Of a stretch of DNA of 64,000 nucleotides, positions 53,638-56,811 are shown in pieces. The DNA is taken from IMG/VR virus record IMGVR_UViG_3300034062_007329, positions 14,787 through 78,786 of that record, one strand, 5' to 3'. A program made the position numbers and the translations under genes. A model generated the notes under the pieces. The model saw nothing but the letters and a program-made list of their open reading frames with translations, searched no databases and was not told the DNA's origin. The stretch's first letter is position 1, and each line of letters opens with the position of its first letter. Origin of the DNA: a virus.

Positions 53638-53920
53638 ATATTTTGAGACCTTGTTAGCAAATCTAACAATGGAAGAAGTTATTGGTCTTAAATTAGAACT
53701 TGCCTTATCAAAAAATCCTACATCGCTATTATGCCTTCCTGTTTGGAAGTCAACTCCTAAATTTGTTCGTGATGCCATGTTTAAAGCAGCTCTTGGCATT
53801 GCTGGAACAAAAAAAGGAGCTATGCGTATTTTAGGAATGAACGCAAGAGTTTTTAATAACTACTTAAGTAAGTTAGATATTTTAAGCTATTATAAGGAGA
53901 AGGGAGATGAAATTAACTGA
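53564..53920 (+). CDS. Hypothetical protein with possible C-terminal Fis-like HTH
   Basis: AL......K.A.RILG. Confidence 0.45.
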   Translation: MTKKNTTINRYSLSKILREKKKSNEYFETLLANLTMEEVIGLKLELALSKNPTSLLCLPVWKSTPKFVRDAMFKAALGIAGTKKGAMRILGMNARVFNNYLSKLDILSYYKEKGDEIN

Positions 53921-54485
53921 GCAAGAATTAAAACAAATATTTCCAAAAGCTCCAATAGATAAATTAAAATTGTATGCGCCAATTTTATTAAATACATGTA
54001 GCCAAATGGGATTTGATACTCCAAAACGAATCGCTGCCCTATTAGGACAAATTGCTGTCGAGAGTGGAGAATTAAAATACGATAAAGAGCTACCAAGTAA
54101 ATGGAATAAAAAAAACCCAAACGATCCAAATGAACCAGTTGGGACGCTTTATGAAGGACGTAAAAATTTAGGAAATATTAAAACTGGTGATGGACCAAGA
54201 TATATTGGTAGAGGTTTATTGCAACTAACTGGACGCGCCAATTATTTTGATTATGGTAAAAAAATTGCCGTGGATTTAGTGAACAATCCAGACCTCGCCT
54301 GCGATCCAACGATATCAGTTAAAATTGCTTGTCAATATTTTATAGATCGTAAATTAATTGAAGCTGCTGATAAATGGGATCTTGCAACAATAACAAAACG
54401 AGTAAATGGAAGCGCTATGTTACATCACGACAAAAGAGTAGCCTATTCAGAAAAAGCTTTGAAAGTTTTAGAAGGAAGCGTTTAA
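53907..54485 (+). CDS. GH19 family endolysin
   Basis: AALLGQ..VES, YEGR.NLGN...GDG.RY.GRG.LQLTGRANY, ITKRVNG. Confidence 0.93.
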   Translation: MKLTEQELKQIFPKAPIDKLKLYAPILLNTCSQMGFDTPKRIAALLGQIAVESGELKYDKELPSKWNKKNPNDPNEPVGTLYEGRKNLGNIKTGDGPRYIGRGLLQLTGRANYFDYGKKIAVDLVNNPDLACDPTISVKIACQYFIDRKLIEAADKWDLATITKRVNGSAMLHHDKRVAYSEKALKVLEGSV

Positions 54486-54555
54486 AAAACTTAACTCCAC
54501 CAAATAATGCCACAGACCGCTTGACAACAAGGGGCGTCTGTGGCATACTTGTTTC

Positions 54556-54910
54556 TACGAGCAAAATAATCGGGAGGTCGGATTAAGAGTGTCCATCCTT
54601 TAAAGAGTGCGGCGAAATCCACGGAGCGCGGCAATTTTCCGATAGGGACATTATGCGAAAGCGGATCTAAAAAGGCTAAGGATAATCCAACCCTGTTATA
54701 TAGATTATCTACGTTGAGTGTGAAAACGAGCTACGGCTCCACATAAATAGAATCCAAATGTCGATTGCCTTAATTGTGAATAAACCAAACGCTCTGTGGT
54801 TGGGGAATAGGAGAAATGTATCGGTGCAGCGGTCCAGAATAATGGAGTAACCGATAAAAAGGTGAAAGCTGCAATGCAATGGGATTCCGCTTTGGTGTAG
54901 CAACACACCT
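54556..54910 (+). ncRNA. Unassigned structured RNA of about 350 nt
   Basis: Own promoter (TTGACA 54521, CATACT 54544), no credible ORF, many stems and pseudoknots. Confidence 0.6.
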
Positions 54911-55267
54911 ATTATTTTGTTCTTTACAAGTTTATTCTGCTCTGGTAGAGTGTTCTTATAGCCGTCTGGAATGACGAAGGAGGGTCGTAAAATGGAAGAA
55001 ACAACAAAGCAAGTTCAAGGTGAACCTTGGAAAAACGAAAGCTATTTTGACTCATTTGAAGAAGCTGATGCTCTTCGTAAGTCATTACGAGCAAATGACA
55101 AAACTGGTACAACTCAATTCAAAGTAAAGCGTTGTGGTGTCGCTGGTACACAATACGTTGTAAAAAGTCGTGTAGACCCATCATTGAAAGCTGCTCTTGA
55201 AGAAATCGAAGAAAAGATGCTTCGTAAAAAGTCTGAAAAGAAGAGCAAGAAATAACAATGGTGACAT

Positions 55268-56178: not shown

Positions 56179-56253
56179 GCGGGTATAGCTCAATGGTAGA
56201 GCTTCTGCCTTCCAAGCAGAATGTTGCAAGTTCAAATCTTGTTGCCCGCTCCA
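56179..56253 (+). tRNA. tRNA-Gly(UCC)
   Basis: TCTGC-CTTCCAA-GCAGA, CCA. Confidence 0.95.
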
Positions 56254-56256
56254 AAC

Positions 56257-56811
56257 TTAGACGGCAGCCTTTTCGGGGGTTGCCGTTTTTGTTTTCCATT
56301 TTCCATCCTTACTTAAGAAATGCTCTTCCATATGACAAGTCGGACAAACAACTACTAAGTTTTCTATAGCGTTATTGTTCCTATTACGATCTTTATGGTG
56401 TACTTCTAAGATTTCAGAGTATTTATTATATCCGCATAATTCACAAATTTTTGGTTTTGTTCTAAATGTAATCTCTCGGTAGTGAGAATCTCCAGACCCA
56501 TAATGAGAAGGCTGTAGTTCTTTTAAACCAAATTCTATTCTTTGGGCTAAATCTTTATGTTCCCTGCAACAAAAATGTAAATTTTTTTTAGAGTTTTCTT
56601 TTTGCGAAGCATTTTTATAGAATATTTTCTTACAATATGAACACTCAATATTCGGAGCGTTTATTTTAGCACTGCGTTCCAGTAGTTTCTTTTTCACACC
56701 TTCAGCAGAACATTTCTTTGAACAATATTTTGCGTTGCCTCTATTTACTTCACGAAGCTGTGCTTCAAAATTTTCTTTACAAGTCTGACAAGCTTGTGTT
56801 ATAGTTTTCAT
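56257..56811 (-). mobile_element. HNH homing endonuclease with Zn-finger repeats
   Basis: CELC..LEVHHKD.NR.NN..ENL..VCPTCH..EH. Confidence 0.88.

Follow-up and report, generated by a model that had tools for sequence, protein, structure and literature searches.

We propose that positions 54559-54922 (plus strand) of a 64-kb stretch of phage DNA, here called the window, encode a stand-alone, stable RNA that rebuilds the GTPase-associated centre (GAC) of bacterial 23S rRNA away from the ribosome and likely serves as a uL11-binding decoy, a reading to which our sequence comparisons lead us to give a probability of roughly 0.85. The GAC, which comprises the top of helix 42 together with helices 43 and 44 (E. 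coli positions 1051-1108), is the minimal domain that binds uL11 and thiostrepton. Judged by alignment, the conserved core of the phage RNA is a copy of E. coli 23S positions 1052-1105 that is split by a 286-nt insert. The RNA has a defined anatomy, its fold contacts are conserved, it belongs to a family of phage RNAs, it is linked to tRNA and tmRNA genes and it is preceded by a promoter-type sequence. Its long closing stem and the split, near base-for-base copy of the 23S GAC are points that a preliminary description of the same locus did not contain.

Locus and secondary structure

The window covers the final 64 kb of an IMG/VR virus record, which is 78.8 kb long and estimated to be about 35% complete, and it carries 17 tRNA genes (ARAGORN). 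The RNA is housed in a 485-nt gap between an endolysin ORF (53907-54485; PHROG 181, E 1e-47) and a 94-aa ORF (54971-55255), which has no assigned function, does not encode a ribosomal protein and is followed by the gene for a ClpP-like prohead protease. There is no conserved ORF in the gap, and its GC content is 0.42-0.47 compared with about 0.33 in both flanks, which bears out the earlier impression of an ORF-free, GC-richer island. The promoter that had been proposed for the RNA, TTGACA-17-CATACT, is also confirmed as a sequence (54521-54549): it is of the sigma-70 type, TG-extended, matches the consensus at 10 of 12 positions, is conserved in four related loci (L002-L005) and predicts a transcription start at about 54556. 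Its -35 box lies within an inverted repeat, CCACAGAC (54510-54517) / GTCTGTGG (54536-54543). We further observed that a perfect 8-bp inverted repeat enclosing the -35 element TTGACA and ending right at the -10 element is found both here (CCACAGAC/GTCTGTGG-CATACT) and in the tmRNA promoter of L002 (L002:2190-2235; CCACGGGA..TTGACA..TCCCGTGG-TATTCT). This repeat-enclosed design could be an operator, or a hairpin-forming promoter, specific to the stable-RNA genes of this phage group.

In the model summarized in Table 1, the two ends of the RNA would form stem P1, on top of which would sit helices 43 and 44, with loops of the 1067 and the 1095 type, respectively, together with the UUUAAAGAGU junction, while a clade-specific domain of 286 nt (P2, P3 and a pseudoknot) would be spliced in before the equivalent of G1091. 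P1 takes the place where helix 42 closes the rRNA domain.

Table 1. Features of the RNA locus, in positions of the 64-kb window.
Feature	Position	Strand	Remarks
RNA promoter	54510-54549	+	-35 TTGACA 54521-54526, -10 CATACT 54544-54549, spacing 17, TG-extended
RNA gene	about 54559-54922	+	~365 nt; from closing stem and covariation
P1, 5' strand	54559-54573	+	GAGCAAAATAAT-c-GG; pairs with 54908-54922
5' GAC block	54570-54608	+	corresponds to E. coli 23S 1052-1090
Helix 43	54575-54583 / 54591-54599	+	1067-type loop 54584-54590
Junction TTTAAAGAGT	54599-54608	+	part of 5' GAC block
P2, 5' strand GCGG	54609-54612	+	pairs with CCGC 54887-54890; base of inserted domain
P3	54619-54628 / 54790-54799	+	CCACGGAGCG / CGCTCTGTGG; encloses 161-nt variable region with hairpin 54718-54744
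Junction TTGGGGAATAGGAGAAATG	54800-54818	+	nearly invariant in 13 clade members
3' H-type pseudoknot	54819-54873	+	stem A 54819-54824/54851-54856; crossing helix 54825-54830/54868-54873
Pseudoknot inner hairpin TCCA-GAATAA-TGGA	54833-54846	+	pairs 54833-54836/54843-54846
Pseudoknot A-rich linker	54857-54867	+	
P2, 3' strand CCGC	54887-54890	+	3 of 4 P2 pairs with compensatory changes (six clade sequences)
3' GAC block	54891-54909	+	linker TTTG, then 23S 1091-1105 equivalent, GTAGCA loop; A1095 equivalent 54899
Helix 44	54895-54898 / 54903-54906	+	within 3' GAC block
P1, 3' strand	54908-54922	+	CC-t-ATTATTTTGTTC
Second promoter, for downstream 94-aa ORF	54923-54951	+	TTTACA-17-TAGAGT; marks 3' edge of RNA cassette

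Across six sequences of the clade, 92.3% of the cells in the 55 pairs of the model are paired, compared with 40-54% when the partners are slid by 1-3 columns, and both-side changes occur in 22 pairs, compared with 2-6 after sliding; the observed values for pairing and covariation were not attained in any of 500 shuffles. The fold of minimum free energy computed from the single sequence is ordinary (z = -0.62), so that the evidence for the structure is comparative and not thermodynamic; it was gathered with block profiles (nhmmer) and direct pair counts in place of a full-length covariance model. In the same six sequences, 8 of the 14 bp of P1 have changed on both sides with 96% of cells paired, and the five junction-proximal bp of P3 covary; the sequence that P3 encloses differs between the window and L002 on one side and L003 and L004 on the other. 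A T-run near the 3' end was considered as a terminator tail and rejected, as it is the 3' strand of P1.

Several pairings put forward in the preliminary description agree with this model. The 3' pseudoknot, TATCGG/CCGATA crossed by TGCAGC/GCTGCA, shows covariation in six clade members, with both-side changes in three of the six pairs of the crossing helix and 97% of its cells paired, and the inner hairpin GTGTG..GAGC-tacg-GCTC..CACAT (54718-54744) retains its pairs through compensatory changes in L002. The terminal GTGT/ACAC hairpin is likewise kept in six clade members, but it is invariant and hence carries no covariation information. A supposed 5' pseudoknot (ATCGGGA/TTCCGAT crossed by GTGTCC/GGACAT) is contradicted, as only 69% and 64% of its cells are paired and its bases are taken up by P1 and helix 43, where 96-100% of cells are paired. 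The pairing GAATCC/GGATTC, with 81% of cells paired, overlaps P2. As for the extent given earlier (54556-54910), the locus was right and the true span, 54559-54922, is wider.

Known RNA classes do not account for the region. A cmscan search with the 4227 families of Rfam 15 returned nothing at the gathering thresholds, and at E<=10 only two chance-level matches on the minus strand (E 5-7); there was no match in the region to RNase P, tmRNA, group I or II introns, GOLLD, ROOL, HEARO or OLE, nor to raiA, 6S, SRP, YrlA or ribosomal protein leaders. ARAGORN called no tmRNA or tRNA within the gap, and a BLAST search with the whole gap against 50,697 phage records gave no match. These results agree with the earlier statement that RNase P, tmRNA and intron signatures are lacking. 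The Rfam search and a search for homologs in phage metagenomes had both been suggested at that stage, and the latter yielded 116 distinct, covarying relatives. The idea of a large structured non-coding RNA of a possibly undescribed class thus holds, the RNA being conserved, covarying, absent from Rfam 15 and without a literature description that we could find. In some relatives, the motifs 'AGGAAAGTC' and 'ACAGAA' invite an RNase P-like reading, which we rejected: they are not conserved clade-wide and form a local hairpin.

Correspondence to the GTPase-associated centre

The likeness to rRNA came to light when a BLAST search with a short member of the family matched, besides isolate phages that carry the RNA, 'phage' contigs that are true 23S rRNA, and blocks were then aligned with annotated E. 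coli 23S rRNA (L192) and a piece of Staphylococcus 23S rRNA (L191). As a separate observation, contiguous genuine 23S rRNA lies in unannotated stretches of Paenibacillus phage Pd_22F (L196; MZ092003.1, about 83.4-85.2 kb) and of unverified Staphylococcus/Listeria phage 'Kay' contigs (L191; OR845016.1 and similar records); these stretches are probably host contamination or misassembly and can yield false phage matches.

When applied to the window, the family profiles of the 5' and the 3' block each produced one significant nhmmer match, at 54570-54608 (E 3.8e-11) and 54891-54909 (E 2.4e-5), respectively. Conversely, the profile of the window's clade matches the E. coli rrn operon solely at the GAC (E 8e-7), and cmscan places the member from Cronobacter phage GAP32 on positions 1096-1145 of LSU_rRNA_bacteria, which span helices 43 and 44 (E 7.4e-5). 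The identity of the window blocks to E. coli 23S rRNA is low (26/39 in the 5' block and 9/15 in the 3' block), and the window member is assigned on the strength of the family profile and of compensatory changes. The differences are indeed mostly compensatory: pair 1058-1080 has changed from U-A to G-C, pair 1064-1074 from C-G to A-U, and position 1072 from C to U jointly with the change of pair 1092-1099 from C-G to U-A, so that the predicted triple consists of U at 54590 and U-A at 54896/54903. Helix 43 retains pairs 1057-1081, 1058-1080, 1059-1079 and 1062-1076 to 1065-1073, with U1060 and 1061/1077 left unpaired, and equivalents of U1060, A1088, G1071 and G1091-C1100 are present, with their contacts predicted from sequence alone. 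The insert sits between 54608 and 54895, just before the G1091 equivalent, and when it was compared with the E. coli rrn operon by blastn-short and nhmmer, no other rRNA-like module came to light. Given the 286-nt insert, the lack of flanking rRNA and the lack of any LSU rRNA match in the window (cmscan), the window RNA is a mimic and not an rRNA gene or a fragment of one.

The family to which this RNA belongs was collected by exact-pattern scans with conserved 3' and 5' motifs followed by profile searches, which gave 150 paired matches in viral contigs and 117 loci with distinct cores; one empty edge case was set aside, leaving 116 sequences of 95-418 nt for analysis. All follow one plan, in which a long P1 of variable sequence is formed from the flanks and is followed by a 39-nt 5' block, P2, a variable insert and a 19-nt 3' block, and the inserts fall into 89 unrelated types. 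Cultured carriers, in which the RNA occupies unannotated gaps, are Ralstonia phage RSP15, Cronobacter phage GAP32, Aeromonas phage 4_4572, Pseudomonas phage pf16, Acinetobacter phage ME3 and Vibrio phage 2.275.O.

Within the 116 members, U1060 and A1088, which form a tertiary pair in the rRNA domain, are invariant, as is A1077, and A1077, U1078, C1079 and G1059 are all nearly fixed (G1059-C1079 in 114). G1071 and the pair G1091-C1100 are each found in 115 members; some positions of the 3' block were partly set by the way in which members were collected, while the named pairs and the triple were free to vary. Pair 1058-1080 is GC in 55, AT in 33 and TA in 12 members, and pair 1064-1074 is CG in 106, GC in 6 and AT in 4. 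The first three pairs of P2 are formed in 112, 110 and 105 of the 116 sequences, compared with 52-65 when partners are shuffled. At 1072/(1092-1099), 64 members have U/U-A and 48 have C/C-G, with four exceptions, and both states recur in dozens of insert types that are unrelated to one another. Within the ribosome, C1072 touches both C1092 and G1099 and is stacked on the G1071/(G1091-C1100) triple (PMC2952862, PMC8614978). The three-way covariation at 1072/1092/1099 is difficult to account for without a docking of helices 43 and 44 in the phage RNA like that in rRNA, and it is from this covariation that we infer the tertiary fold, since the chain is interrupted by a large insert.

The phage RNA resembles the 23S GAC in its helix 43, complete with a bulged U1060 and the unpaired U.U and N.A, in the UUUAAAGAGU junction, which is identical to the Staphylococcus rRNA in L191, in pairs G1087-C1102 and G1091-C1100, in the 1071/1072 triple partners with their identical covariation rule, in the G.A at 1056/1103 and in a closing stem at the position of helix 42. 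It departs from the GAC in being a free RNA of 95-418 nt instead of part of a 2.9-kb rRNA, in having its chain opened before G1091 to take in P2 and a variable domain (286 nt in the window), in having A at position 1101 in 114/116 members where the rRNA has U, and in its variable loop bases 1067-1070 (A1067 in 86/116) and a closing stem without conserved sequence.

These features bear on the possibility that the phages merely picked up a fragment of a host 23S rRNA gene that has no function. True rRNA pieces do exist in phage databases (Pd_22F, L196; the 'Kay' contigs, L191). However, the family copies positions 1052-1105 only, has a constant split point, adds P1 and P2 and preserves its pairs through compensatory changes; the U/U-A triple prevails in more than half of the members, in contrast to C/C-G in the E. 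coli and Staphylococcus 23S rRNAs, the two that were compared; and there are 116 distinct members, with a promoter of its own in the case of the window. We therefore consider functionless debris extremely improbable. The family belongs to phages, since one true member stood among the at least 120 matches listed when the 3' motif was run against 185,579 genomes of bacteria and archaea. No homolog of the T4 stable RNAs C and D was recognized, as T4-group phages gave no match beyond chance matches inside a peptidase gene.

Genomic setting and probable gain or loss of the RNA cassette

Many members of the family lie near genes for stable RNAs. The distance from the RNA to a tRNA or tmRNA gene is at most 100 nt in 52 of the 117 loci and at most 300 nt in 68 (58%), and 431 of the 435 nearby tRNA and tmRNA genes are on the same strand; the copy in phage pf16, for example, sits between tRNA-Asn and tRNA-Pro. 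When the 2,798 neighbouring ORFs of the 117 loci were clustered, no shared protein partner was found, only homing endonucleases and clade synteny, with HNH endonuclease genes as the commonest neighbours (12/117 loci). In the window, a minus-strand HNH homing-endonuclease gene (56257-56811) abuts tRNA-Gly (56179-56253).

A search of IMG/VR with the flanking 94-aa protein identified seven loci (L002-L008). The gap is homologous in four of them, with 93% identity in L002 and with conserved ends and a diverged middle in L003 and L004, and L006-L008 hold a shorter, far more diverged copy of the RNA. In L002-L004 and L006-L008 the RNA is located directly 3' of a phage tmRNA gene (tag ...YALAA). The window has no tmRNA upstream of the RNA, and its nearest tRNA gene is the tRNA-Gly at 56179, 1.26 kb downstream. 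Compared with L002 (2170-2535), it lacks, at 54486-54510, the 290-nt tmRNA gene (tag VNDDVEFESYALAA) together with its promoter, and a remnant persists as the last eight bases, CTCCACCA (54495-54502); no tmRNA was found elsewhere in the 78.8-kb record, where the sole match is a tRNA. L005 (2900-3005, set against window 54510-54975) has the tmRNA and one promoter, apparently a hybrid of the two in the window, and lacks the RNA. This arrangement suggests that the RNA is a cassette between two similar promoters (54521-54549 and 54923-54951), which can be lost or gained by recombination between them. One branch of the clade (L006:2765-3000, L020, L083, L089, L091, L141) has a small ORF of about 80-100 aa, with the N-terminus M(A/K)KK.K(I).HWNYR.., that starts 20-30 nt past the RNA and is absent in the window.

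The same observations speak to the possibility that the RNA acts in cis as a 5' leader controlling the 94-aa gene behind it, as the rRNA-mimicking leaders of ribosomal protein genes do. Imitation of rRNA is a known principle of such leaders (PMC7247131), and an ORF follows the RNA on the same strand. Yet P1 closes the RNA on itself, a separate promoter (54923-54951) precedes the ORF, L005 has the ORF and a promoter without the RNA, other phages have the RNA between tRNA genes with no ORF behind it, and the downstream gene does not encode a ribosomal protein. Taken together, we regard a cis-regulatory leader as very unlikely.

Proposed function and significance

According to our main reading, that of a free GAC mimic, the RNA would be made, be stable and fold like the rRNA domain, and it would bind whatever recognizes the GAC fold, with ribosomal protein uL11 as the first candidate. 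The C-terminal domain of uL11 reads the part that is best conserved in the family, namely 1058-1062/1076-1080 and the tertiary core. As the best-conserved bases coincide with this site whereas the factor loops are looser, uL11 is the most likely direct partner, and the nearly fixed uL11 site beside variable positions 1067-1070 fits recognition of the fold and by uL11 better than recognition through the factor loop. No uL11 gene was found in the 78.8-kb record. The particle of RNA and uL11 might act as a decoy or titrator of a GAC-directed toxin, defence enzyme, translation factor or stringent-response factor that docks at the stalk base. We rank a decoy for a GAC-directed enzyme first, followed by titration of a factor or of uL11 itself. 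A consideration against any decoy is that each cell contains tens of thousands of ribosomes, with which it would be in competition.

The inserts of some long members provide a further hint. A scan for the hairpin AGUA-C-GNRA-G-GA(A/C) in the insert detected copies of the sarcin-ricin loop (SRL) in seven members of 364-409 nt (L036, L045, L066, L072, L080, L103 and L221). These members carry one or two hairpins each, AGUACGAGAGGA with a flanking stem, as in ...AUAGUACGAGAGGAGCC... compared with ...CUAGUACGAGAGGACCG... in E. coli, and L066 additionally has a T-arm-like GGTTCGAGTCC. The inserts of the long members look like a kit of translation-machinery mimics, and the SRL copies point to a recognizer of the whole factor-binding site. 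The motif scan found no SRL module in the window member. Just 3' of the GAC-mimic RNA of Ralstonia phage RSP15 (L189:2830-3050), we noted an unannotated stretch that ends in a tRNA-like T-arm and an acceptor-like strand (..GCGGGTTCGATTCCCGCATCCACTAC..); ARAGORN called it neither tRNA nor tmRNA, and a further stable RNA, tRNA-like or permuted, may be encoded there.

In a more specific form of the main reading, which we consider less likely than not, the RNA would be a decoy substrate or inhibitor for a translation-shutoff enzyme and, alone or together with uL11, would sequester a toxin, from a host defence or a competitor, whose action is to modify or cleave the GAC; the long relatives would then cover the SRL too. 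A precedent for such an enzyme is the Tre23 toxin, which ADP-ribosylates helix 44 at 1095-1098 and blocks EF-G (PMC8661411). In line with this, the 1095-type loop is fairly well kept in the family (G1093 in 116/116, U1094 in 115/116, A1095 in 103/116 and A1098 in 114/116), seven long members add SRL copies such as ...AGUACGAGAGGA..., and the location of the RNA among tRNA genes has a parallel in phage tRNAs that counter tRNA-cutting defences. On the other hand, a catalytic toxin would be hard to titrate and the window member is without an SRL module; moreover, among the defences that act during phage infection we know of none directed at the GAC.

Alternatively, the RNA-uL11 particle could be a sponge or platform that binds EF-G, EF-Tu, IF2 or RelA-type enzymes and thereby adjusts translation or (p)ppGpp signalling in the infected host. 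In vitro, EF-G is bound by oligonucleotides that represent the GAC or the SRL alone, and RelA activation depends on uL11. GAC and SRL together form the factor-binding site (PMC8661411), and some members carry both. However, the factor-contacting loop 1067-1070 is the least conserved part of the mimic, and most members, that of the window included, have no SRL copy, which makes a sponge for GTPases rather unlikely in our view. In its broadest form, our proposal is that a modular RNA carried in the tRNA arrays of large phages, with the GAC as its constant part and the SRL as an addition in some members, assembles with host uL11, and perhaps with stalk proteins, into a free-floating copy of the factor-binding site that captures GTPases, stringent-response enzymes or defence toxins, a picture that we offer as a possibility to which we would give somewhat less than even odds.

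Some aspects of the GAC mimic have counterparts in known systems. The leaders of ribosomal protein operons (L20, S15, S4, L10; PMC7247131, PMC11633770) are likewise extra-ribosomal RNAs that imitate the rRNA site of a ribosomal protein, but they are short cis-acting mRNA leaders of cellular operons that keep few contact nucleotides, whereas the phage RNA is self-closed, has its own promoter-type site, lies among tRNA genes and reproduces a complete tertiary domain; a survey of rRNA-mimicking leaders (PMC7247131) includes none for uL11. The pseudo-ToxI antitoxin mimic of phage phiTE (PMC3475682) is also a phage non-coding RNA that imitates a host RNA, and phage tRNA genes whose products stand in for, or protect, tRNAs under attack from host defences (PMC13096335) share the genomic home of the GAC mimic. 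In contrast to both, the RNA described here imitates a piece of ribosomal RNA, and a role in counter-defence is hypothetical. Similarly, the Y RNAs (YrlA; PMC4201824) are modular stable RNAs with an end-to-end closing stem that mimic a translation RNA and occur in phages, but YrlA mimics tRNA and binds Ro60, while the module of the phage RNA is the GAC and is not tRNA-like. We found no published description of a phage GAC mimic in the searchable literature, and the family is apparently an undescribed, new kind of RNA.

Finally, imitation of rRNA has so far been known only for the short mRNA leaders by which ribosomal proteins limit their own synthesis, whereas the free RNA described here is viral and reproduces an entire functional domain of the ribosome, including a covarying base triple, and does so in more than 100 distinct forms in phages of Ralstonia, Cronobacter, Pseudomonas, Acinetobacter, Aeromonas and Vibrio and in many uncultured phages. 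To this family the window adds a tmRNA-linked clade, a member with its own promoter, a presence/absence polymorphism between two promoters and an insert pseudoknot supported by covariation. As several of the carriers are cultured phages, the proposal is directly testable. If true, it would establish a new viral class of host-takeover or counter-defence RNA that imitates part of the ribosome, and it would provide natural, varied scaffolds of a classic RNA-protein and thiopeptide antibiotic binding site. Should the RNA bind uL11 or act as a decoy for GAC-directed enzymes, a new chapter would begin in our understanding of how phages deal with the translation apparatus and the defences of their hosts.
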